In this document: in pieces, positions 1 to 16,362 of the stretch
Numbering within the stretch: position 1 is the first letter of the stretch
How the letters are laid out: each line of letters starts with the position of its first letter
Assembly (NCBI GenBank): GCA_016839445.1
Contig: JAEOUG010000104.1
Span: 1 to 22,670 of the forward strand
Reading direction: 5' to 3'
DNA: 22,670 nt
Origin: Candidatus Thorarchaeota archaeon
GTDB taxonomy: Archaea; Asgardarchaeota; Thorarchaeia; Thorarchaeales; Thorarchaeaceae
Program-made: the position numbers and the translations under genes
The notes under the pieces: generated by a model
Databases searched by the model: none
Told to the model about the DNA's origin: nothing
The model's input: only the letters and a program-made list of their open reading frames with translations

Positions 1-803
1 AGGACCGCAGTGCTCTCAGGGTCGACAATCCCAACAAGCTTCTCTGCGAGCCGCTCTGCCATTGGCCGATTCGAACACATGACCATAGTCTGTCCACGAC
101 GTGCATGGACAAACTCAGTGAGGTCTGCTAGTGAATCATCTTGGTCTTCGAATGCCTTCACTCCGAAGACTCGGTTGATATCCTGCTTCTTGTCATGAAC
201 CTCTCTTGCTGATAGCCACTTGCTGAGGTCTTGAACATTGGCGAGTGGGGGACAGATTCCGATATACTGGAGGTCAGTCTTGCCAATCAAGGACACCAGA
301 CTAGTCTCCAGGCGGGCACCTATGTCAGGTTGTCCAATGAGATCCAGTCTGTCTATGAGGACGCACTTCACATCCGCCCTGATCTCTGGGTTCAGTCGTG
401 AAGCCAAGTCAAAGGCGGTGTAAGTGGCTACTACCACTCTTCCCAACGGCTGACTAGCATGAAGTGCCATTCTCCTCTTGCTTATCTCTGTCACTGGAAT
501 ATTGAGCCTGCTGCACTTGGCCCCAATGGACTTGAGTCTCCGTTCGACTTGGTATGGGTTCGGGCACAGCACCACGGCCCTGGCCTTGAAGTCCTTGGCC
601 ACTCGGTTGATGACCGCTATCTCAGCAATCTCGTAAGCCTCATCTGAATCATACGTCACAAGTATCTGGCTTGTGCCCCTAGTGAGCCCGGTCTTTACCG
701 CATCCATCTGGAACTTCGACAGGCGGTCTATCCCCTGTCTTCTCAGGACCTCCAGTAGCGGTGGCGCCACTTGATAGAACTCCAAGTCATCAAGCGTACT
801 CAA
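1..803 (-). CDS. Hel308/Ski2-like SF2 helicase homologue with degenerate catalytic motifs (N-terminal part; runs off window start)
   Basis: Manual translation from TTG at 803 (in-frame TGA upstream at 824-822, GGAGTGGG SD-like sequence) is open to the window edge: MSTLDDLEFYQVAPPLLEVLRRQGIDRLSKFQMDAVKTGLTRGTSQILVTYDSDEAYEIAEIAV...AVVLCP...VVVATYTAFD...CVLIDRLDLIGQPDIGARLE...QYIGICPPLANVQDLSKWLSA...GQTMVMCSNRPMAERLAEKL. This is colinear with the Hel308 Q-motif and motif I, Ia, Ib, II, III and IV scaffold. Confidence 0.8.
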   Translation of the reverse strand, partial: MSTLDDLEFYQVAPPLLEVLRRQGIDRLSKFQMDAVKTGLTRGTSQILVTYDSDEAYEIAEIAVINRVAKDFKARAVVLCPNPYQVERRLKSIGAKCSRLNIPVTEISKRRMALHASQPLGRVVVATYTAFDLASRLNPEIRADVKCVLIDRLDLIGQPDIGARLETSLVSLIGKTDLQYIGICPPLANVQDLSKWLSAREVHDKKQDINRVFGVKAFEDQDDSLADLTEFVHARRGQTMVMCSNRPMAERLAEKLVGIVDPESTAV

Positions 804-849
804 AGGGTCCCACTCCGTCTTTCAGATGCGCATGTGGTACTATGAGGAA

Positions 850-875
850 ATAGTATAATATCCTATTAGTTTTGT
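850..875. promoter_or_regulatory. AT-rich TATA-like element in divergent intergenic region
   Basis: ATAGTATAATATCCTATTAGTTTT; reads TATTATA on the minus strand, about 50 nt upstream of the helicase-like start, in the AT-rich part of the spacer. Confidence 0.4.
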
Positions 876-1044: not shown

Positions 1045-1785
1045 ATGGCTTTCGTTGCAACGACCGATTCGAAGTTCCAGATAGTATTGAAGAAGGGCTT
1101 CAAGATTAAGCCGGGTTCCACGTTCATATGTGGGTTCCATGGCTTGGGCGAGGTTGGATTCCTGAGCACAGCTCACCTAACGCGCACCCTTAACGCAGAG
1201 CGTGTTGGCTTCATCAAGAGCGATATGCTACCGCTATTCGTATCAATGGAGAACGAGAAGCTCGTCTTGCCGTTTGAGATATTCTCCTATGAAGAGAAGA
1301 GCATGGTCTTCCTGGTTCCCAGATTCCAGCCACATCAATCAGAGCAGTGGAGCTTCATAGATCGACTTGCGAACTGGATTGCACAGAATGGCTTCAAGGA
1401 GACTCTGCTTCTGGGAGGTCTGGATGCCAGCTTCAAGGAAGACGAAGAGAAGATGCGTGCAGTTCCTACTTCTGCCTACGGTGACGATATGGAGAAGTGG
1501 TCTGTGCCCCTACTCGAAGAGGGTCTCTTTGTAGCAGGGCCTCTGGCTCTCCTCCTTGCCGAGCTCGAGATGCTCTCCCAACCTGCCGTTGGGCTTCTTA
1601 CCTATGCCACACGTGGCAGACCAGATCCTCGTTCCGCCGCAGACATGCTGGAGAAGATCAACGAGGTCTATGGTGTGGAGGCAAACGTAGAGCAGCTGTT
1701 AGAGGAGTCACGAGAGATAGAGCGGCTCGAGAAGATGAGGAAGTCAATCGAGTCATCGGATAGTCCCAGTGACATGTTCGTCTAA
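1045..1785 (+). CDS. PAC2-family proteasome assembly chaperone (PbaA/PbaB-like)
   Basis: GFHGLGEVGFLST (G.PG.G.VG-like), LLGG, VAGPLALLL, PDPRSAA, and a C-terminal helix ending DMFV; 246 aa is typical for the family. Confidence 0.9.
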   Translation: MAFVATTDSKFQIVLKKGFKIKPGSTFICGFHGLGEVGFLSTAHLTRTLNAERVGFIKSDMLPLFVSMENEKLVLPFEIFSYEEKSMVFLVPRFQPHQSEQWSFIDRLANWIAQNGFKETLLLGGLDASFKEDEEKMRAVPTSAYGDDMEKWSVPLLEEGLFVAGPLALLLAELEMLSQPAVGLLTYATRGRPDPRSAADMLEKINEVYGVEANVEQLLEESREIERLEKMRKSIESSDSPSDMFV

Positions 1786-6429: not shown

Positions 6430-9400
6430 TTGGGTGAAAGCGAGGATACTCAGGTGAGCGCATCAGATAGCACTGCCAAACGCAGGATGAGCATTGCCAC
6501 TATAATCAGTACAATCTTCATTACTGCAAGCATCATCTGGGCCGTTGTAGGCTTCGGCTTGATACAGTTCGGGGCAGTTCGGGCTTATCCACCTCACTTC
6601 GAGTATGACACGATCGACTATTGGCCCTACACTCACGATTTCGCTGGCGGCAGAACGAACTGGTTTCAAGATGTGAACTACACTACAGTGCCAGTGAATC
6701 AGACGCTCCCCGATGACTTGATCGACCGGCTGGACGACCCAGTCTTCATAGTGATTCCCAGAGACCCGGCACAGTTGTGGCGAGCAGGCTCGTATGATTA
6801 CTACGATGGGTCCAGCTGGGGAAAGACCACGGTCTCACCCTATGACCTCTCTGTTGAGGAGCTGATACCTGCCGCAGCCGCCCCAAATGAGATCTACGAC
6901 ATCTTCTTCACAGCCACCGCCGGCGCGTCGGTAGGTGAGATGGAGCTTCCCACTATACACCCATCCATTCGGGTCATTCAGGACTCCTTCAGGACTTGGA
7001 GCGTTGTAGACGATACCCTTGTGCTCGATAGTCCATCTCGTTTGCTGAGCTACACATTAAGGACGGACCGTTATGGGACTCTCCTCTTTAGTCCCCTGAT
7101 ACAGGGGACAACTGGCGAAGAGGTCGTCATGAGCTTTGAACTATCATACGAGATTCAGGACCTGGTGAATGTGGAGTCTCATGCTCTGCCAGGCAGTTTC
7201 GCTCCCGGAAGCCTCGCAGTCTACACACAGACCCCCGCTCTGACAACTCGAGTTCTGGACAACATCAGCCAGTTCCAGGATGTTGGTAATGATGCCTACG
7301 AAAAGGCGCTCTCAGTTCAGTTCTACTTCAGGAACACGTTCGATCTTGTCATAGATCCAACTGCCCTTCAGAACCGGCCAGGAACGCAAGAGGTGACTGA
7401 CTGGTTCCTAGAACAAGGACAGGGCCTCCCGCTGGACTTCGCCACCGCATACTGTGTCTTCATGCGCGAACTCGGCGTTCCAGCTCGGCTCGTCAAGGGC
7501 TATGCCATCGGTGAACCTGATCCGATTGAGGACTTCAGGACGATAATGGTCAGGCACATGACCTACTGGGCCGAAGTGTTCATTCCCATGTCTGATGGCA
7601 GTGGCGGCGAATGGATTCAGGTGATTCCTGCCCCTCTCACTCCCGAGTTTGGAGGGTCTGAGGACCCCATCAATTACCCGATACCAGATGTGGAGCTTCT
7701 GGTCTATCCCACCAACGGCTTGTACTACGCTCAGATAGGCAGTCTCTTCGAGATCAGCGCGCAGATATCAGTTGAGGGGTCGAGAATAACCACTCCCGAG
7801 ACCCTCTTCTTCTTTGATGAGACTGATACACAGTACATCGGTTCTGCTTCACTTGGGCAGGCCCCCTTTGAGCCCATAGCAAATGTGAGCTATGTGTTCC
7901 CGTCCAATGCAACTGTTGACTTCCACATCATCTCTGCGACATGGTTTGCGCCCACGCTGCAGGTCACCAATTACACAGCTATCTATGCTGTGGGTCAACC
8001 TGTGCCTTCCTATGATGACTTGCAGGCCGCTCCAGACGATTTCGTTGTCAGCGGCACAACTGACGTCAATGTGAGCCAAGGAATAGACACCTACAAGGCG
8101 TATTGGGAAGACATGGTTCACGTGTACGGGCGCATGACGGTGGGTGGCAACCCAGTCAATGGCTCCAAGTATGGGAACGACCAGATCCGAATTATGTGGG
8201 ACAACACCTTCATGGGAAACGCCACAATCGACGAGTATGGATTCTACTCCTATGACATCTATGTTGATCCCATGGACCACGCATCAATGAGCGTGGGTCC
8301 GCACGAGGTCTGGTCATGGTATCTAGGTGACTTCGACGACGGCATACCACGTCTTCTGCCCGCCAGGTCTCAGGACAACTCAACAGTCACGGTCTGGGGT
8401 CGAGTGGGGTTCGACCTCTATGTGACGCCTAGTCCGGCGTATCCCGGTGCCAATATACACTATGAGGGACGAGTCTATCTCCTGAATGGGTCTCTTTTGC
8501 CCATACCAGATTTCGCTGGTGTCTTCTTCGGTTCTCAGGCGAATTCCACAAGATCACTGAACGTCACTGGCGGCTTCACATGGAACTACGTGATTCCTGT
8601 GACACAGCCCGACGGAACCTACTTCATAAGGGCCAATTGGACATCCAGCTACCCATACATCGTAGGGAACTGGAGCATCGAAGTTCCTCTTGATGTAGGG
8701 GCAGGAGGCTCTGCGCTCACTCTGGATCCTCTCCCGGACCCGATTATCATTGGATGGACTGTAAGGTTTCAGGGCTACCTGACTCATGTTTCAAACGGTT
8801 CAGGAATAGGAGGCCAGTGGATAGACATCTGGTGGGACAACGGGACGCATGTGGTGAATCTGGGCCCCGTACTGACTGCGCCCAATGGCTCGTACTACCT
8901 TGATTATCAAATCCTCTCTCCCTACAAAGGTGATGTAGACTACTGGGCGAACTTCACATCTCCAATACCCGGACTATCCGACTCCGAGTCAATACACCGG
9001 ACAACCACGGTCAAAGGCTATGACGTGGACATAACGATCTTCGCTGATCCTGACCCCGTACTACTGCTGCAGACACTGACCATCCAGGGGACAGTCACGG
9101 TTCCAGAGGCTGGAGGGCTTCCACTCCAGTTCGAGACGGTGACAATATGGATGCAGAATGGCACAGGGGTCTACAATCTCACCAATCGTGTGACAAACTC
9201 CACTGGGGGATACATCTACTACTATACAATCCCAATCTACCAAGACACCGAAGTCATCCACTTCTGGGCGAACTACACATCGCCCTACATCAATGTTGAA
9301 AACGGCGAGTCAATTCACGAGCCGGTCACTGTAGAGGCAACAGGGACTCTCCTGAGTGTGATCTCCGATGACACACACTACTACCTGAACGAGACGGTCA

Positions 9401-12400
9401 TCATCACGGGCAATCTTGCCTTTTCTAACGGCACTCCCCTCCAGGGAGAGACAGTCTACATACACTGGATCAATGCCACCGGGACCTACATCTTTGAGAA
9501 GAAGACCGATGCTCTTGGCAATTACCTCTTCCTCTACAATCTCACGACCAACGATGCCACAGGGACTGTGGACGTTGAGGTATACTTCATCTCTGGTTCA
9601 CCGCTCGTCGAGGATGCCTCGGCCATCCTTTTGCCTTCGCTCACGCTGCAGCTGTACGAGTTAGAGCTTACTATGGTGGTGCCGACGCAGATCTACGTCG
9701 ACGAGAACCTGTTCATTCAGGGGTATCTCAGATATCTTGGTGGCTATCCGCCTCTCCCCGGAGAGGACGTGGAACTCTGGTGGTTTAACGCAACCTCAGG
9801 CTTCTACGAGTATCTCTGGTTCACAACAACGGATAGCTCAGGATGGTTCAACTTCACAGTACCCTTCGTTGGCCCGCAGGAGGGAACGGTCAGTTTCGCC
9901 TGCGTTCACTGGGCTTCAGATCCCCTGAACAACGATGTGGCCGCCTTCTTTGATGTTGACAGGATCCGATACCAGTCCAATCTGGAGATCACCGTGTTTC
10001 CGAATCCAGTCTTGCAGAACGAGACAGTGGCCATCCACGTCTACCTATACATGGATATCAATGGAACCGCTATCGCAAACACGAACGTGAGCTTATACTG
10101 GAACAATGGAACTGTCCGTTTCTTGGGTATTGTGACCACTGACGGGACAGGACATGCGGACTTCTACTACTCTGGAATGGACAATGACACAGTCCGCTCT
10201 GGGATCCAGATCTACGCAGTCTTTCCCGGAACTGCATACCTGGGCCCGAACCAGACCCTTCCACAGACTCTCACGTTAGACCAGTGGCAGACGCAGCTCG
10301 TGGGTGTGAACATACCGCTTGCAGTGTATAGGCTGACCGAGACCGTCGTTGTCACAGGAACGCTTCAATACACACCGTCAGGCATTCCCTACGGTGGAGT
10401 GACCGTTGAACTATGGCATCTGAGTACGTACCTGAACACAACGGTGACCGCTCCTGACGGAACATTCGCTCTCTACTGGACCATCCCCGGAGGGCAGGGC
10501 CTAGGATTCTACGACTTGGAGGTACGTTTCGTCTCTTCGTATCGCTGGATAGCAGACTCGCAGGCACCCGTTCCCCAGTTTGAGATTGTCGCACCTGGCT
10601 ACACCTGGATCTGGTTCTCCGCGACACCGGGAGTTGTCTACCGAACATACTCCCTCAACATCACTGGGATAGTCCAGTGGGACAATGGTACCATCTTTGC
10701 CAATTCACCAGTAGAAATCTATTGGGGCGACTACTTCGGCGCAAGTAGCTATGTTCGCACGGTACTAACGGACTCCAGCGGGCGCTTCAGCATTCTCGAG
10801 CCCATTCCAGGAACCATGCCTCTCGGAGATCTGGACGTCTGGGGCTACATCGCCCCGGCGGGCTTCGCAACTTCAAGTGACTCTCCTGTGGCGACTGTCA
10901 CCGTGGCAGTCTACTCTGTAGTGCTGACTGCAGATGTTAGTGTGGGGACAGCGTATCTCGGTGAGAGTATCACGTTCTTTGGGACTCTTCAGTTCGCTAA
11001 CGGGACTCCCATGGTCGGTTACGAGGTGGAAATCTGGTGGAATGACCTGTTCATTACTTCTCTGACGATTAGTGATCCAGTTAGTGGCGCCTACAGCTAT
11101 GACTATGACATTCTGTATGGCAATGACTTGGGATATATCTCCGGGTACGTCGATTTCGTTGTTCCATCGGCGGCATTCGCTCCTTCTACGGAGATTCTGC
11201 CTGATGTACTTGTCCTCGAGTATGTCACACTGGTTCTGAGTAGCGAGCCCTCTCCTAACGATTTCACGCGGGGTGACATCGTCACGCTTAGTGGCTATGT
11301 TGAGAACGATGTACTCACCAGGGTGTCAGGTGCTACTATCGAGGTCCTCTGGGGCGTATTACCTACTGGAGTCACAGGAGTCACAGAATCTGACGGAACA
11401 TACTCGATTGACTTCACGATTCCTTCCTACTGGCCTCGAGGAACACATACGCTGACCGTCATTGTGGTTTCGCCCTTCCACGACCAGCAGAACACGCCGA
11501 TTGTCTGGACAATTGAGGTTTTCGTCATTTCTGACCTGGACCTGCAGGTGACGCCTGCAGCTATTCTGGCTGGCGAATCAGTCCCAGTGTATGTCGAGCT
11601 CTATGACGGTGATGGAGTCCCGTTACACGACTCCCAGATTCTCATCATGATAGGGACTGCAGTTGTAGGCACCTATCTCCTGTCTGATGCTTCTGGCATG
11701 ATTATTCAGGTGACCGTTCCTGCCTCTTGGAGTGAGGGCGACGGGACGTTCTTGATCAGCGGGGAGTTCACACCAGCGGGCGGTCTCTATATCCGCTCCG
11801 ATTCCGACTCAACTGTCGACTCTATCCATGTCTTCACTGATGTCGTATTCATTCGAAACACACCAAGTAGGATAGACCCCGACCAGGTGTTCTACATAGA
11901 AGTGCAGCTAGAGGATACGGCGGGTAATGCGATAGTTGGCAGGAATGCAGAGATAGTGATCAATGGGACCGTTGTTTCCACTGAGATAACAGATAGTGCA
12001 GGTGCCGTATCCTACAGACTCGATGGGTATCCTTCGGGCACAATAATCACTTATTCTATCACGCTCACATCATCACAGGTCGCAGGAATTTCATCAGATA
12101 CGTTCACAATCCAAATTCAAACACAAGGTGGTAGTCCATTGCAAGGAACAGATTTGCTAATCGCAGGTATTCTACTGGCCGGCGCTATCGTGGCCGTTCT
12201 AGCATACCTATACATCGTCAAAGGCATGTTCCGCACAACTGTGATATCCCGTAGTTCAGTGGATATCCCAACCAAGCTGCGGAACATCAAGAAACTCGCA
12301 GACGCTGGGAAGTATGGTGCATCAATCACGTTGGCGTATCGTACCTTTGAGCAGATGTGCGGTGCCAAGATGGGATCCCAAAGGGTCCATTCAGAGACCG

Positions 12401-12594
12401 CTCGCGAGTACCTTGATCGTGTGCTAGAGGCAATCCCGTTGGATGCTGGCTCTGTAGAAACATTTGTGCAGACATACGAAGAGGCCCGGTTCTCTCATCA
12501 TGAGATGACAAGGGAGCGTTACGAGGAAGCAGTCAGGATATTCACTGACCTCTATCCTCGAATTGACTCGAGTGCACCCGTTGAGAAAGTCTAG
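6430..12594 (+). CDS. Giant membrane-anchored surface protein: N-terminal TM, TgpA-like/transglutaminase-like domain (triad lost), about 14 Ig-like repeats, TM, DUF4129-like C-terminal domain
   Basis: N-terminal hydrophobic helix; LWRAGSYDYYDGSSW (TgpA_N-like); DFATAYCVFMRELGVPARLVKGY...WAEVF...WIQV; repeated beta-rich modules of about 100 aa; TM LLIAGILLAGAIVAVLAYLYIV; AYRTFE...SETAREY...YEEARFS (DUF4129 pattern). Start is TTG 6430 or ATG 6487. Confidence 0.88.
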   Translation: MGESEDTQVSASDSTAKRRMSIATIISTIFITASIIWAVVGFGLIQFGAVRAYPPHFEYDTIDYWPYTHDFAGGRTNWFQDVNYTTVPVNQTLPDDLIDRLDDPVFIVIPRDPAQLWRAGSYDYYDGSSWGKTTVSPYDLSVEELIPAAAAPNEIYDIFFTATAGASVGEMELPTIHPSIRVIQDSFRTWSVVDDTLVLDSPSRLLSYTLRTDRYGTLLFSPLIQGTTGEEVVMSFELSYEIQDLVNVESHALPGSFAPGSLAVYTQTPALTTRVLDNISQFQDVGNDAYEKALSVQFYFRNTFDLVIDPTALQNRPGTQEVTDWFLEQGQGLPLDFATAYCVFMRELGVPARLVKGYAIGEPDPIEDFRTIMVRHMTYWAEVFIPMSDGSGGEWIQVIPAPLTPEFGGSEDPINYPIPDVELLVYPTNGLYYAQIGSLFEISAQISVEGSRITTPETLFFFDETDTQYIGSASLGQAPFEPIANVSYVFPSNATVDFHIISATWFAPTLQVTNYTAIYAVGQPVPSYDDLQAAPDDFVVSGTTDVNVSQGIDTYKAYWEDMVHVYGRMTVGGNPVNGSKYGNDQIRIMWDNTFMGNATIDEYGFYSYDIYVDPMDHASMSVGPHEVWSWYLGDFDDGIPRLLPARSQDNSTVTVWGRVGFDLYVTPSPAYPGANIHYEGRVYLLNGSLLPIPDFAGVFFGSQANSTRSLNVTGGFTWNYVIPVTQPDGTYFIRANWTSSYPYIVGNWSIEVPLDVGAGGSALTLDPLPDPIIIGWTVRFQGYLTHVSNGSGIGGQWIDIWWDNGTHVVNLGPVLTAPNGSYYLDYQILSPYKGDVDYWANFTSPIPGLSDSESIHRTTTVKGYDVDITIFADPDPVLLLQTLTIQGTVTVPEAGGLPLQFETVTIWMQNGTGVYNLTNRVTNSTGGYIYYYTIPIYQDTEVIHFWANYTSPYINVENGESIHEPVTVEATGTLLSVISDDTHYYLNETVIITGNLAFSNGTPLQGETVYIHWINATGTYIFEKKTDALGNYLFLYNLTTNDATGTVDVEVYFISGSPLVEDASAILLPSLTLQLYELELTMVVPTQIYVDENLFIQGYLRYLGGYPPLPGEDVELWWFNATSGFYEYLWFTTTDSSGWFNFTVPFVGPQEGTVSFACVHWASDPLNNDVAAFFDVDRIRYQSNLEITVFPNPVLQNETVAIHVYLYMDINGTAIANTNVSLYWNNGTVRFLGIVTTDGTGHADFYYSGMDNDTVRSGIQIYAVFPGTAYLGPNQTLPQTLTLDQWQTQLVGVNIPLAVYRLTETVVVTGTLQYTPSGIPYGGVTVELWHLSTYLNTTVTAPDGTFALYWTIPGGQGLGFYDLEVRFVSSYRWIADSQAPVPQFEIVAPGYTWIWFSATPGVVYRTYSLNITGIVQWDNGTIFANSPVEIYWGDYFGASSYVRTVLTDSSGRFSILEPIPGTMPLGDLDVWGYIAPAGFATSSDSPVATVTVAVYSVVLTADVSVGTAYLGESITFFGTLQFANGTPMVGYEVEIWWNDLFITSLTISDPVSGAYSYDYDILYGNDLGYISGYVDFVVPSAAFAPSTEILPDVLVLEYVTLVLSSEPSPNDFTRGDIVTLSGYVENDVLTRVSGATIEVLWGVLPTGVTGVTESDGTYSIDFTIPSYWPRGTHTLTVIVVSPFHDQQNTPIVWTIEVFVISDLDLQVTPAAILAGESVPVYVELYDGDGVPLHDSQILIMIGTAVVGTYLLSDASGMIIQVTVPASWSEGDGTFLISGEFTPAGGLYIRSDSDSTVDSIHVFTDVVFIRNTPSRIDPDQVFYIEVQLEDTAGNAIVGRNAEIVINGTVVSTEITDSAGAVSYRLDGYPSGTIITYSITLTSSQVAGISSDTFTIQIQTQGGSPLQGTDLLIAGILLAGAIVAVLAYLYIVKGMFRTTVISRSSVDIPTKLRNIKKLADAGKYGASITLAYRTFEQMCGAKMGSQRVHSETAREYLDRVLEAIPLDAGSVETFVQTYEEARFSHHEMTRERYEEAVRIFTDLYPRIDSSAPVEKV
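7690..12120 (+). repeat. Protein-level tandem array of about 14 diverged Ig-like (Big/macroglobulin-like) domains of about 100-105 aa
   Basis: Recurring pattern L.l...P......GE.v.i.G.L...NG.p..g..V.iwW.NGT.......TD..G.y...y.IP......G...v.a.f, e.g. GNLAFSNGTP, GTLQFANGTP, GIVQWDNGTI, TDSSGRF, TAPDGTF, TESDGTY. No obvious nucleotide-level repeats. Confidence 0.75.
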
Positions 12595-12596
12595 AT

Positions 12597-14000
12597 GTGA
12601 TGCTAATGGGATGGAAGGAAGTCCTGCAAATCATCCTCTTTGTCCTCACCTGGACCCCAGTGGCAGTGCTGGGTTGGTATACGCTCATCGGAGCGGAGCC
12701 CACATACAGTCAGGATTTCTCCATCTACAACGACGAATACAACGGTCTCAGCCAGTTCAGAAGCAGCATTGAGGACAACAGGGACGTCCTCTCTATTCAA
12801 GCCTCAATGAGCGTTGTCTCTCGGTACAACGGCTCTGCAGTGCTTGTCATCATGGGTCCTGTGCGTGATTTCAGTCTCGATGTCACACTCGTCGTGTACA
12901 GCCATCTCTTGGCAGGAGGCGGGGTGTTGATCGCGGACGACTTTGGCACCGCAAACAGCTCATTTGCTGTTCTCAACTACCTCATGACAAGTCTCCTAGG
13001 AGGACAGCTACCTGGCAACATTTCTGGACTCCTATCCTACACAGGCGGCGTGATCTTCGACTTGGATTCGTATGACCCCGCAAAGGAGCCGCGTCTTCCG
13101 ATAATCAGGGACTTCCACAGTGTGTCAGGTCCCGGGGCAATACTCACACAAGGAGTATCTGAGCTTCACTTGAACTATGCTTCGGCAATCAATCCATACT
13201 GCCTGGTGGGCCTGAATGGCTTTGCATGGACTACACCTCGGACTTGGTGTGAGACCGATATCAATGACGATACACCAGCTCCCGACCCGTACGAATGGAA
13301 CGGCAGTCTTCCCGTTGCGGGAGCGCTAGACTTCTCATCTGAGCAGATTCCGAACGGTGGACGTCTCGTAGCGACCAGCGACCCGAGCATATTCATCAAT
13401 GACATGTGGAGAAGGTTCTCCGGCAACAGGCAGTTTGGGGCAAACGTCATTGAGTGGCTGTCAAAAGGAGATACTGAAGTACCTGTCATCTTCTGCGAGG
13501 AGCTTCTGGCAGTGCCTCCCGCATCCAGCGAGTTCTTCTTCGGACTATACCTTGGCCGTGCGCTCTGGCTCTCCTCACTCCCCTATCTCTCCGCACTCTA
13601 TCCTGTCTTCACTGCCGTGGGCATCAAGAAGTACCTGCCCGAGTTGAAGAAGCCGGAGGTCAAGAGCGTTTCAGACGTGTTTCTCCGAAGAGGCCAGACA
13701 TACTTCGGCGAACGGATGACGTACTACAGAACAGAAGGCAACTACACCAGAGTCGTGAAGATGCTGTATCGAAAGCTCAGAAGAGGACTGCGCAAGAAGA
13801 TGCAGTGGACTGACTTCGATCCGCGCAGGGTGTGGGATCTTATGCGTTACAAGGACTCCAAGCTCAGTGAAGCAGAGTTCTACAGGACAATCGACCGGAT
13901 AGAGGAGATTTCCTCCAATCCGAGTATCAGAATCAAGGAGAGCGAAATGATGGAGCTCTTCTTCTTCATGAGGAATATTCAGCGACATTTGGTAGACTAA
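12597..14000 (+). CDS. DUF4350-like membrane-anchored protein (GATase1-like extracellular domain, TM, helical C-terminal domain)
   Basis: N-terminal TM; FSIYNDEYNGLSQF, GGGVLIADDFGTANS, GRLVATSDPSIFINDM, N..F..NVIEWL are DUF4350-type motifs; located in a MoxR operon. Start may be ATG 12600 or 12606. Confidence 0.8.
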   Translation: MMLMGWKEVLQIILFVLTWTPVAVLGWYTLIGAEPTYSQDFSIYNDEYNGLSQFRSSIEDNRDVLSIQASMSVVSRYNGSAVLVIMGPVRDFSLDVTLVVYSHLLAGGGVLIADDFGTANSSFAVLNYLMTSLLGGQLPGNISGLLSYTGGVIFDLDSYDPAKEPRLPIIRDFHSVSGPGAILTQGVSELHLNYASAINPYCLVGLNGFAWTTPRTWCETDINDDTPAPDPYEWNGSLPVAGALDFSSEQIPNGGRLVATSDPSIFINDMWRRFSGNRQFGANVIEWLSKGDTEVPVIFCEELLAVPPASSEFFFGLYLGRALWLSSLPYLSALYPVFTAVGIKKYLPELKKPEVKSVSDVFLRRGQTYFGERMTYYRTEGNYTRVVKMLYRKLRRGLRKKMQWTDFDPRRVWDLMRYKDSKLSEAEFYRTIDRIEEISSNPSIRIKESEMMELFFFMRNIQRHLVD

Positions 14001-14016
14001 TGGAGGTAGAAGATAA

Positions 14017-15006
14017 TTGACCACAGAAGAATCCAATGAAACCCCAATCGTGGACACCACTGCAATGATGACGATTGATGAGGTGAAGAACCTTACAACC
14101 GAGATCATTCAGGAGTGCAACCGGATCATCGTAGGTAAGAACGAGATCCTGTCTAATGTCCTGATAGCTATGCTATCAAACGGGCATGTCATTCTAGAAG
14201 GTGTTCCCGGTCTGGCAAAGACATACATGGCGAGGACCTTTGCGTCAATACTGGGGTGCGCGTTCAAGCGAATCCAGCTCACCGTTGACACACTACCCGC
14301 CGACCTGCTCGGGAGCAATGTCTTCAATCAGAGAACAGGAGAGTTCTGGTTCCGGAAGGGCCCGGTCTTCGCGAATCTCGTTCTAGCTGACGAGATAAAC
14401 CGATGTCCTCCCAAGTCTCAGAGCGCCCTGCTCGAGGTCATGGAAGAGCGACAGGTCTCCATCGAAGGCGTAACTAGGAAGCTTCCGCAACCCTTCCTCA
14501 TCATCTCCACTCAGAACCCGGTGGAGCAGGAGGGTACCTACCCACTGCCCGAGGCGCAGCTTGACAGATTCATGTTCAGGCTCATTCTGGACTACCCGAC
14601 CGGGGATGAAGAGGCCGAGGTTATCCGAAGAAAGCACCTCGGCGAGGCATCAGACCTGAGAGTCCTGGCGGATCCCACAACCATGGTCAAGATGCAGAAC
14701 ACCTGCCGGACCGTGTTCATCGAGGAAGACATAATCAACTACATTCGAGACATCGTCATCCGAACAAGGAACGATCCACAGATTCTCTTGGGAGGTTCAC
14801 CGCGAGCCTCACTGGTCCTGATGAACGCTTCGAAGGCACGGGCTGCCATGCATGGACGGGACTATGTTGTCCCAGAGGATGTACGTCGCCTCTCGGTTCA
14901 GGCTCTCAATCATCGGCTTGTGCTGAAGCCCGAGGCTGAGCTGGAAGGGTTGACGGTTGAGAGAGTTGTCTCGAAGATACTGGGCGAAGTAGACTGTCCC
15001 CACTGA
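14017..15006 (+). CDS. moxR: MoxR-family AAA+ ATPase
   Basis: Walker A GHVILEGVPGLAKT, RIQLT.D.LPAD, GPVFAN, Walker B LADEINR, QSALLEVMEERQVS, TQNPVEQEGTYPLPEAQLDRF, GSPRA, HRL; SD GGAGGT before the TTG. Confidence 0.97.
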   Translation: MTTEESNETPIVDTTAMMTIDEVKNLTTEIIQECNRIIVGKNEILSNVLIAMLSNGHVILEGVPGLAKTYMARTFASILGCAFKRIQLTVDTLPADLLGSNVFNQRTGEFWFRKGPVFANLVLADEINRCPPKSQSALLEVMEERQVSIEGVTRKLPQPFLIISTQNPVEQEGTYPLPEAQLDRFMFRLILDYPTGDEEAEVIRRKHLGEASDLRVLADPTTMVKMQNTCRTVFIEEDIINYIRDIVIRTRNDPQILLGGSPRASLVLMNASKARAAMHGRDYVVPEDVRRLSVQALNHRLVLKPEAELEGLTVERVVSKILGEVDCPH

Positions 15007-15039
15007 GCGTGAGAACCTAGTTACTGGAGAAGACGCAAA

Positions 15040-16362
15040 GTGATTACGCAGAGAGGCTTTGTGGTGGTGTTTGCGGGAGTCCTCCTACTGACAAGTGGAT
15101 TCTCTTTCATCAACTTCTACCTCGTGCTTCTTGGTGTGTACCTAGTCATTGGACTCGTCGTTACACTGCCTCTCTTTGCAGTCACAGCCAATCTTGCAGG
15201 CATCGAAGTCGACAGACAGATCGACAAGGTGAAGGTCTTCTCGGGTGACTTCCTGCGTGTCAGGGTGACCATACGAAATGCCTCTCGAAGACACTTCGAT
15301 TTCATCGAAGTTCATGATCAATACCCGGAAACATGGATTCTGGCCATAGGTGAGAACTTCATCGCGTCGAGGATTGAGCCAGGCAGCAGCATCACGTTCT
15401 CCTACATACTCCAAGCCCGAATGCGGGGGCGATACTACCTGGGACCCACTGAGGTCGTCATGCGTGATCGCCTTGGTCTGCACTACTACAAGCGTACCCT
15501 CAAGGAGCAGACCGAAGTCCTGGTGTATCCTACTTGGAAAGATGTCCGAAGGATGGAGGCGCTCGGGAAGCAGCGACAGCTGGGCCTCATGTTCGGTGCC
15601 CACAGAACCAAGACGGTTGGAATGGGTGCGGACTTCGCTGGGTTCCGAGACTACGTCCCCGGCGATGAATTCAGGCTCATAGACTGGAAGACCAGCGCCA
15701 AACGTGGAGACATGGTGATTAAGCAGTTCGAGATGGAGAAGAATGTCAGCGTAGTCTGCATGGTAGACACAAGTGGTAGCATGGGAAACGGTTACCCGGA
15801 GAACACGAAACTCGAATATGCCATCAGAGCTGCTGTGCTCCTAACTCACCTTGGACTTGAGAGAAAGGACCTTGTTGGTACCTGTGTGTTCAGTGACATG
15901 GTCCACGGGTTCGTTCCTCCACAGACCACCATGAATCACATGTACGACGTCCTTGAGGTCCTCGCAGCTGCTGAACCTGGCGGCTGGAGCGACTACGAGA
16001 CCGCTATCTCGCATGTTGTGGAGAAGGTCAAGAAACGCTCGCTCGTCATCTGGATGACGGACCTTGAAGAGAGTCCCGCACCGCTTCTGAATGCAATGAA
16101 GACGCTTGTTGCCAATGGCCACAAAGCCATGGTGATCAGCCCGTTCGGGCCTTGGTTCGAGGCACCAGTGGGCCAGTTTGGTCCTGTGGAGAAGGTGCTC
16201 GCTGAGGCTGTGTCTGAAGAGCTCTGGGAACGAAGAAGGAAGATTGCCAGGGCACTCGCCAGATTCGGCATCTCGGTTGTTAACGTGGGGCCGGAGGACT
16301 TCCTCCCCACCATCATAAAGACCTACGAACAGGCAAAGCAGAGGGGGGTGGCCATGTTTTGA
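15040..16362 (+). CDS. DUF58-domain / vWA protein with N-terminal TM helices
   Basis: RGRY.LGP, VLVYP, FAGFRDYVPGDEFRLIDWKTSAK, KQFE.E, MIDAS DTSGSM, KLEYA, D.VG, TDL. Confidence 0.95.
   Translation: MITQRGFVVVFAGVLLLTSGFSFINFYLVLLGVYLVIGLVVTLPLFAVTANLAGIEVDRQIDKVKVFSGDFLRVRVTIRNASRRHFDFIEVHDQYPETWILAIGENFIASRIEPGSSITFSYILQARMRGRYYLGPTEVVMRDRLGLHYYKRTLKEQTEVLVYPTWKDVRRMEALGKQRQLGLMFGAHRTKTVGMGADFAGFRDYVPGDEFRLIDWKTSAKRGDMVIKQFEMEKNVSVVCMVDTSGSMGNGYPENTKLEYAIRAAVLLTHLGLERKDLVGTCVFSDMVHGFVPPQTTMNHMYDVLEVLAAAEPGGWSDYETAISHVVEKVKKRSLVIWMTDLEESPAPLLNAMKTLVANGHKAMVISPFGPWFEAPVGQFGPVEKVLAEAVSEELWERRRKIARALARFGISVVNVGPEDFLPTIIKTYEQAKQRGVAMF

Follow-up and report, generated by a model that had tools for sequence, protein, structure and literature searches.

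The window, as the term is used here, is the stretch of 22,670 bases at the start of contig C70 (JAEOUG010000104.1) of a Candidatus Thorarchaeota assembly. It opens with the 5' third of a genuine gene, of an expressed type, that codes for a pseudo-helicase derived from Hel308, a protein whose key ATPase motifs are replaced or eroded (hereafter the dead protein). It combines a Hel308 architecture with motif loss, absence of the helix-hairpin-helix (HhH) domain, a SWIM insert, a single origin and purifying selection, and it coexists with a canonical Hel308 and with a SWIM paralogue whose ATPase motifs are intact; this part of the picture is held with high confidence. Taken as one statement together with a proposed function as an ATP-independent SWIM adaptor, the picture is the one we favour, with moderate confidence. 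An original prediction made from the same stretch had described a selected, non-catalytic Hel308 paralogue rather than a decaying gene, and stop-free full-length orthologues, invariant substitutions and ratios of nonsynonymous to synonymous change (dN/dS, omega) of 0.04-0.11 bear this out. The sources name Thorarchaeota, consistent with the Asgard lineage that had been assumed. The SWIM insert, the missing HhH domain 5 and the position of the family as a dead branch of a wider lineage of SWIM-bearing helicases go beyond that prediction.

The Hel308 scaffold is recognizable in the sequence of the window fragment itself. In a phmmer search against PDB sequences, residues 16-210 align to Pyrococcus Hjm (2zj2, E 3.1e-12), with YDSDEAY lying under PTASGKT, DRLD under DEIH and CPP under SAT. 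Further matches are Hel308 2va8 (E 2.2e-8), 7ujb (1.3e-6), and 2p6r and 9b15 (both about 0.0025), and the other 20 of the 25 sequences listed are noise (E ≥ 0.34; histone H3 and similar). A full-length orthologue matches Hjm 2zj2 at E 1e-16 over residues 10-407 in the same kind of search, and its sequence similarity to Hel308 spans both RecA1 and RecA2 (residues 10-419).

The replaced motifs and the elements that are retained lie exactly where the original prediction had placed them (Table 1), and the substitutions are a property of the whole family. A motif census of 20 family rows from 16 genera finds neither GK[ST] nor DExH nor SAT in any row, whereas all five nearest outsiders retain GKT and DE. 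In every row Walker A reads [TS]-x-D-[YF]-x-E-[AG]-[YL], motif Ia C-P-N-P-[HY], motif II x-R-[LIVM]-D and motif III CPP, SPP, TPP or similar, and motif V is replaced by M-P-x-R-F-A-x-A-S-G. Motif VI (QxxGRAGR) has lost its first Arg and keeps the second basic residue, which is Arg in 18 of 19 rows and Lys in the other. Across a 30-sequence alignment, the invariant replacement residues are D51, E54, C79-P80-N81, R151-L152-D153 and P184-P185, and the conserved Hel308 features are the F-Q of the Q-motif, GxxLE, L..WL and the motif IVa core F-x-H-x-G. The Q-motif region (KFQ), GARLE and NVQDLSKWL, all described earlier as retained, were located in the fragment, and the last two align to Hjm.

The complete architecture can be read from the closest orthologue, which was modelled with AlphaFold2 on 30 aligned family members (mean predicted local distance difference test score, pLDDT, 79.9; predicted template modelling score, pTM, 0.80). 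The top Foldseek match of the model is Hjm 2zj5 (E 3.9e-21, template modelling scores 0.62/0.66), and Hjm and Hel308 entries rank first. VIA-align superposes residues 4-733 of the model on residues 1-657 of the 2zj8 chain (Z 30.2, root mean square deviation 3.8 Å, 581 residues), and in this full-length orthologue model the aligned span corresponds to Hel308 domains 1-4 (RecA1, RecA2, winged helix and ratchet). The C-terminal cassette of Brr2 (residues 1318-2057) scores Z 30.0 against 29.5-30.2 for Hel308, with the PolQ helicase, Mtr4 and Ski2 close behind. Domain 5 is absent: the orthologues stop after the ratchet-like helices, and no HHH match is found in them with Pfam.

The two halves of the winged-helix domain are separated by roughly 90 residues for which canonical Hel308 has no counterpart. 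This insert is predicted to consist of four β strands, a CxCx14CxH signature and a helix. The signature occurs in all 19 full-length family rows with its four predicted zinc ligands invariant; the window copy breaks off with the contig before reaching it. Against the Pfam SWIM model (PF04434, gathering threshold 19.6 bits), full-length proteins score 15.1-16.6 bits and the insert alone 18.4, and all 24 insert sequences match at E ≤ 0.1 (best 5.7e-5). Folded on its own, the insert reaches a pLDDT of 89.7. Compared with 48,161 PDB chains by VIA, which is independent of Foldseek, this model finds ZSWIM8 at rank 1 (Z 7.0, 84 residues) and Shu2 at rank 2 (Z 4.1, 80 residues); these Z values are modest, and Foldseek with the isolated insert returns no match at E ≤ 0.001. 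Mtr4 and Ski2 carry an arch insertion in the winged-helix domain (PMC10946056, as far as the consulted part of that survey goes), and the insertion point of the SWIM module appears to parallel it in falling within the same domain.

The gene is widespread and vertically conserved. Of 24 genomes from the same genus, 22 contain a strong match (E ≤ 1.4e-55, 55-60% identity); 21 of these matches lie in frames of 733-761 codons without a stop and the last runs into a contig end, and after trimming to the conserved start the orthologues measure 728-735 amino acids (aa). The remaining two genomes, G003 (85% complete) and G013 (92% complete), give nothing above paralogue-level matches. A family-wide search, for which only the C-terminal 312 residues served as query to avoid cross-hits through the helicase core, recovers the protein from 41 of the 43 genomes sampled in the taxonomic family f1, covering 16 genera, at E 1e-82 to 1e-206. 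The gene is single-copy across this family. The best matches outside it are much weaker (1e-25 to 1e-29 in family f21, 1e-17 in f10 and 1e-11 in f3). In a large protein database at least 120 clusters at 90% identity share at least 58% identity with the orthologue query; the name given is almost always "hypothetical protein" and in a few cases "superfamily II helicase", and the organism, where stated, is mostly Candidatus Thorarchaeota.

Selection on these genes was estimated by the Nei-Gojobori method, with 36 of 190 pairs unsaturated at synonymous sites. Omega lies between 0.044 and 0.111 in the 25 pairs listed among these 36, well within the expectation of dN/dS below 1 that the original prediction had set. 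Resolved by domain in six pairs, omega is 0.05-0.13 for the dead RecA1 alone and 0.01-0.07 for the SWIM module. This module is also the region of highest conservation, with 31% invariant columns against 6-13% in the other domains. Against the 19 orthologues the window copy is saturated at synonymous sites in every comparison, and therefore it can be stated only that the proportion of nonsynonymous differences (pN, 0.27-0.31) is far below that of synonymous ones (pS, 0.78-0.97). It retains 29 of 32 family-invariant columns, the three misses being E to D, G to N and I to V, and is 58% identical to the orthologue of genome G001, with its syntenic neighbours ranging from 41 to 87%. From these columns and an identity within the range of its neighbours, it is an ordinary family member and not a decaying one. 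The family as a whole is under strong purifying selection despite its lost catalytic residues, which is the pattern of a pseudohelicase.

The dead form arose once, on a long branch, as judged from a tree of 39 rows and 740 columns (IQ-TREE quick search, with support from the Shimodaira-Hasegawa-like approximate likelihood ratio test, SH-aLRT). The tree is rooted on three ASH-Ski2-like rows and leaves out the window fragment and the truncated L051. Its 21 dead proteins form one clade with support 100 and a stem of 2.92 substitutions per site (median terminal branch 0.46), sister with support 85 to four SWIM proteins that carry GKT and DE. One of these four, the Odin row, has a long branch and an unsure placement, and the tree does not resolve the deeper forks. 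This topology points to an origin from Asgard SWIM-bearing, Hel308-like helicases with GKT and DE, and the long stem followed by later constraint is the signature of a single functional shift and then renewed constraint.

The nearest relatives outside f1 carry the CxCx14CxH insert with a W-[KR]-[FY] motif and keep GKT and DE, and several of them have partly eroded motifs III and VI. One relative (L045) is canonical throughout and keeps HHH_5 / HhH. Another is the "DEAD/DEAH box helicase" WEU40315.1 of Odinarchaeum yellowstonii LCB_4, and other SWIM relatives are labelled Hodarchaeota/Promethearchaeota, Ranarchaeia or Odinarchaeia. A profile search of 1.84 billion representatives returns 40 proteins at E ≤ 1e-30, and the score drops from 1105 bits for the family to 289 for the next full-length protein. 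The SWIM signature is found in 35 of the 75 aligned rows listed, most of which have canonical motifs. A separate observation concerns the 593-aa protein P0151 (Odinarchaeia), from a two-member cluster, which at Walker A and DExQ reads CTPMSCWEL and IDYLH where the relative from Odinarchaeum LCB_4 reads CAPASSGKT and VDEFQ, and which keeps the SWIM CxCx14CxH. Judged by its motifs, it looks like a second, independent loss of the motor in the SWIM-Hel308 lineage.

The genome that carries the dead gene encodes several other helicases. A separate canonical Hel308, which the original prediction had suggested looking for, is encoded on contig C20 next to MCM (GKT, DEIH, SAT, FHHAGL, GRAGR and HhH present); a TAG at this locus is a stop immediately ahead of the ORF and not within it. 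Contig C46 (L022:1489-3678) encodes a Ski2-like paralogue with GSGKT, DEIQ, SAT and GRAGRPG, a shorter SWIM signature (CxCx10CxH) and no HhH; its orthologues in G001 and G025 form with it a clade of their own. An ASH-Ski2-like protein is encoded on C62, and three more Ski2-like/DExH helicase genes lie on C154, C77 and C65. The 886-aa Ski2-like paralogue of C154 (L024) has an intact GSGKT together with DELT for DExH, SSR for SAT and a degenerate motif VI (GRIGE), and on these residues it may be another partly eroded helicase of the same genome.

The assembly comprises 2.9 Mb in 190 contigs and is 89.8% complete with 6.5% contamination. The dead gene is carried on the minus strand by the uninterrupted frame that the original prediction had described, and since the window sits at the start of the contig it is the contig end, rather than a stop, that truncates the frame. 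Of the roughly 735 codons expected in full, those in the window cover the RecA1 domain and the beginning of RecA2. The orthologue L003 (of G001) has CTG in place of TTG at the aligned position, so that its true start may be elsewhere. In 18 of 19 orthologues the 30 nucleotides (nt) ahead of the start contain a GGAG, L014 having GGAA instead, and ATGCGCA or a close variant is found upstream of all 19 (L002-L020). The conserved upstream stretch (827-860) is probably the promoter and transcription start.

Table 1. Features of the dead gene and its divergent neighbour (positions in the window)
Feature	Position	Strand	Remarks
5' part of ATPase-motif-dead Hel308-like gene	3..803	-	open frame, 267 codons, 3' end open
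Element NVQDLSKWL (N..DL..WL), retained	213..239	-	L192, W195, L196 invariant
Motif III, CPP (vs SAT), replaced	246..254	-	P184, P185 invariant
Element GARLE (GxxLE), retained	306..320	-	from alignment
Motif II, DRLD (vs DEIH), replaced	342..353	-	Arg at catalytic Glu position; R151, L152, D153 invariant
Motif Ia, PNPYQ (vs PL[KR]AL), replaced	549..563	-	C-P-N invariant in family
Pseudo-Walker A, TYDSDEAY (vs PTxSGKT)	633..656	-	residues 50-57; no Gly/Lys/Thr; acidic residues conserved
Q-motif region KFQ, retained	708..716	-	F, Q (F30, Q31) invariant in family
TTG start codon	801..803	-	TTG at aligned position in window and 18/19 orthologues; CTG in one
GGAG, Shine-Dalgarno-like	813..816	-	9 nt upstream of TTG; putative role in translation
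Conserved ATGCGCA	827-833	-	about 25 nt downstream of TATTATAC, near expected transcription start
TATA-like box TATTATAC	853..860	-	from sequence; putative promoter element
PAC2-family (proteasome assembly chaperone-like) gene	1045..1785	+	divergent; Pfam PAC2 E 1.4e-35

The surroundings of the gene are conserved. The PAC2 gene is present at all seven family loci examined and adjoins the dead gene in five of them, and sucC/sucD (succinyl-CoA synthetase beta and alpha) lie co-directionally downstream of the dead gene in all seven (L062-L068). Other conserved neighbours are a PUA protein, an RsmB/F methyltransferase, a deaminase, a pyridoxal phosphate (PLP) enzyme, CYTH and HD. In Odinarchaeum (L070) an aconitase gene follows the intact SWIM-Hel308 gene; the presence of tricarboxylic acid (TCA) cycle genes next to both dead and intact SWIM-Hel308 genes is probably a coincidence. 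Elsewhere in the window, a cluster on the plus strand (6430-16362) contains a 2054-aa open reading frame (ORF) with a transglutaminase core and DUF4129, followed by an unassigned 467-aa ORF, a MoxR-type AAA ATPase (14017-15006) and a DUF58/VWA protein (15040-16362), and is of the MoxR-DUF58-transglutaminase type.

In helicases of superfamily 2 (SF2), the Lys and Gly of Walker A bind the phosphates and the Glu of DExH activates water. From the missing P-loop Lys and Gly and the Arg at the catalytic Glu position we infer that the dead protein is incapable of ATP hydrolysis; very probably it is also unable to bind ATP. The acidic residues of the pseudo-P-loop (D51, E54) may pair with the Arg of motif II and the Arg of motif VI by salt bridges, which would fill the nucleotide site and hold both RecA lobes in one conformation; the original prediction had proposed that an acidic P-loop could exclude or mimic nucleotide. 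The result would be a static, ATP-independent adaptor in which the helicase shell offers a binding platform for nucleic acid or proteins and the SWIM module could be a specific recognition arm, probably in DNA repair and recombination or in RNA surveillance. The SWIM domains of ZSWIM8 and Shu2, the two matches of the insert, sit in protein complexes. For archaeal Hel308, the consulted part of one study describes an annealing activity that is separable from unwinding and tuned by motif IVa (PMC10484726), and since the core of that motif is retained in the dead protein, an annealing or clamping role is worth considering.

Several observations weigh against this interpretation. Those that touch on nucleic-acid binding are the altered state of motifs Ia, Ib, IV and V, which contact single-stranded DNA in Hel308 (binding is thus maybe weakened), the change of the ratchet-helix Trp to Tyr in a helix that is itself acidic, the absent HhH domain, and an acidic loop of low model confidence at the position of the β-hairpin. 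The isoelectric points in the family (5.1-8.6) overlap those of active helicases, and the net charge is also unremarkable. The conserved Phe-Gln of the Q-motif and one Arg of motif VI leave a small chance of nucleotide contact. The gene neighbourhood was considered as a clue to function and set aside: synteny holds at 7/7 loci, yet the neighbours are housekeeping genes and point to no partner.

Searches with curated models count against the Hel308 assignment. On the window fragment Pfam reports no family at E ≤ 1, and the NCBIfam Hel308 models reach 26-57 bits against cut-offs of 887-1216. With NF040935 (cut-off 1200 bits) the fragment scores 43 and the full-length orthologue 83; this cut-off is strict for Asgard sequences, because the genome's own canonical Hel308 also falls short of it at 616 bits. 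On three full-length orthologues Pfam returns only the sub-threshold SWIM match, and DEAD and Helicase_C register on none, and therefore these models miss the dead family; a precomputed PF00270 assignment exists for just five of the 120 family proteins listed. Finally, the full gene could be recovered only in part: complete orthologues are available, but a search of the assembly that holds the window copy did not find its remaining 3' two-thirds; the query, the last 372 aa of the closest orthologue, matched there only the C46 paralogue (E 3.3e-11, 27% identity).

The last point is the natural starting place for a decaying pseudogene or an assembly artefact, which could also invoke the silence of Pfam on the fragment. 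However, the truncation coincides with the contig end, the same genus holds 21 full-length, stop-free orthologues besides the one cut by a contig end, and the low omega values, the pN and pS of the window copy, its 29 retained columns and the conserved TTG and GGAG all speak for a maintained gene, so that this explanation has next to no chance of being right. Scarcely more credible is a role in anti-virus defence, for example as a sensor helicase of the Hachiman HamB type minus its motor. HamB is Ski2-like, and the helicase core they share gives the ATPase-intact C46 paralogue as much as 129 bits on HamB models, yet the dead protein itself scores only 15-17.6 bits on any PADLOC model; its gene is single-copy and vertically conserved, and its conserved neighbours are of the housekeeping kind and include no nuclease or effector gene. 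A cryptic nucleotide switch, binding and perhaps slowly hydrolysing nucleotide through a non-canonical pocket, would make use of the invariant F30 and Q31 and of the motif VI Arg kept in all but one of 19 rows. We regard it as very unlikely: the Walker A offers neither Gly nor Lys and carries two to three acidic residues, the catalytic Glu has given way to an Arg, none of the 20 rows keeps motif III or motif V, and the Pfam DEAD and Helicase_C models are silent on three of three full-length orthologues.

Another alternative, though an unlikely one, is that the dead protein would act as a regulatory cassette in trans, pairing as a separate polypeptide with an active Ski2-like helicase such as the canonical Hel308, the C46 SWIM paralogue or ASH-Ski2. 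In Brr2 the active N-terminal cassette is regulated in a comparable manner by the inactive C-terminal one. In favour of this, at least three ATPase-intact Ski2-like proteins are encoded in the same genome and the model is as close to the C-terminal Brr2 cassette (Z 30.0) as to Hel308. Conserved, too, is the motif IVa core F-x-H-x-G, which according to the consulted part of one study (PMC10484726) makes contact with the Hel308 ratchet domain and modulates activity, and an inactive Brr2 cassette with a regulatory nucleotide pocket is documented in the consulted part of another (PMC8220420). That pocket is also what separates the two cases, as the Brr2 C-terminal cassette retains it and the dead protein does not, and no conserved adjacency to helicase genes is seen in the seven family loci examined. 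A bolder form of the idea, in which an undescribed, Asgard-wide SWIM-Hel308 family suffered at least two motor losses (Thorarchaeota and Odinarchaeia) and the Thorarchaeota protein regulates an active Ski2-like helicase in trans, as a two-polypeptide forerunner of Brr2/ASCC3 logic, is correspondingly speculative and we consider it distinctly improbable. The static, ATP-independent SWIM adaptor is thus the reading retained here.

No known relatives of eukaryotes are closer than the Asgard archaea, and in eukaryotic Brr2 and ASCC3 inactive cassettes serve as regulators. A free-standing dead Hel308 in Asgard archaea, set beside the inactive cassettes of Brr2 and ASCC3, is therefore relevant to the origins of eukaryotes. 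A frozen helicase shell that has been kept for so long can show to what motor-free uses a Hel308-type scaffold may be put, for example binding, recruiting or regulating. The dead SWIM protein and its intact sisters in other Asgard lineages make a tractable system in which to study how inactive modules arise and what SWIM recognizes. For annotation, the "superfamily II helicase" label on a few members is misleading.

Among known systems, Hel308/Hjm (2zj2/2zj5/2zj8, 2va8, 2p6r; NF040935) is the structural reference. The likeness lies in the homology of RecA1 and RecA2, the modelled architecture of domains 1-4, the FQ of the Q-motif, GxxLE, N..DL..WL and the motif IVa core, whereas the dead protein differs in its replaced Walker A and motifs Ia, II, III and V, its half-lost motif VI, its missing HhH domain 5 and the SWIM module within the winged-helix domain. 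It is not a member of Hel308 proper, from which it is set apart by motifs I, II, III and VI, by domain 5 and by the curated score, and the resemblance is one of fold only. The Asgard SWIM-Hel308 helicases stand closer. They have in common with the dead protein the insert of a β-sheet and CxCx14CxH with W-[KR]-[FY], as well as the length class, and the C-terminal search (E 1e-11 to 1e-29), the profile search and the tree all place them nearest to it; they differ in keeping GKT and DE, and the Thorarchaeota clade is set off from them by its stem of 2.9 substitutions per site. The part of an archaeal Ski2-like survey that was consulted, which includes 27 Thorarchaeota genomes, recognizes Hel308, ASH-Ski2 and Brr2-like groups; the word SWIM is absent from its main text, although its supplementary tables may list these proteins (PMC10946056), and it is likewise absent from a 2026 Hel308/HELQ review, its supplement aside (PMC13623763). 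Literature searches found no description of a SWIM-bearing or motif-dead archaeal Hel308, nor of Asgard SWIM-Hel308 helicases.

The C-terminal cassette of Brr2, and those of the ASCC3 type, resemble the dead protein in keeping a Ski2-like fold without helicase activity as a regulatory or scaffold unit, a likeness taken here as an analogy only. In Brr2 that cassette is joined in cis to an active one, has Sec63 units and retains a nucleotide pocket, the last as described in the consulted part of PMC8220420, whereas the dead protein is free-standing and has an acidic pseudo-P-loop and a SWIM insert. ZSWIM8 (9rwz) and Shu2/SWS1 (6dex) share the CxCxnCxH signature with the insert, but there the SWIM domain belongs to a ubiquitin-ligase receptor and a Rad51-paralogue complex, respectively, and is not housed inside a helicase shell. 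Yeast Utp25 and Deinococcus radiodurans PriA are also helicase folds that have no ATPase motifs and are still functional, although, as far as the sources consulted in part go, they come from other helicase families (Utp25 being DEAD-box-like), have other partners and carry no SWIM module. What sets the dead protein apart from these other pseudohelicases is that it is at once free-standing, archaeal, derived from Hel308 and SWIM-bearing.

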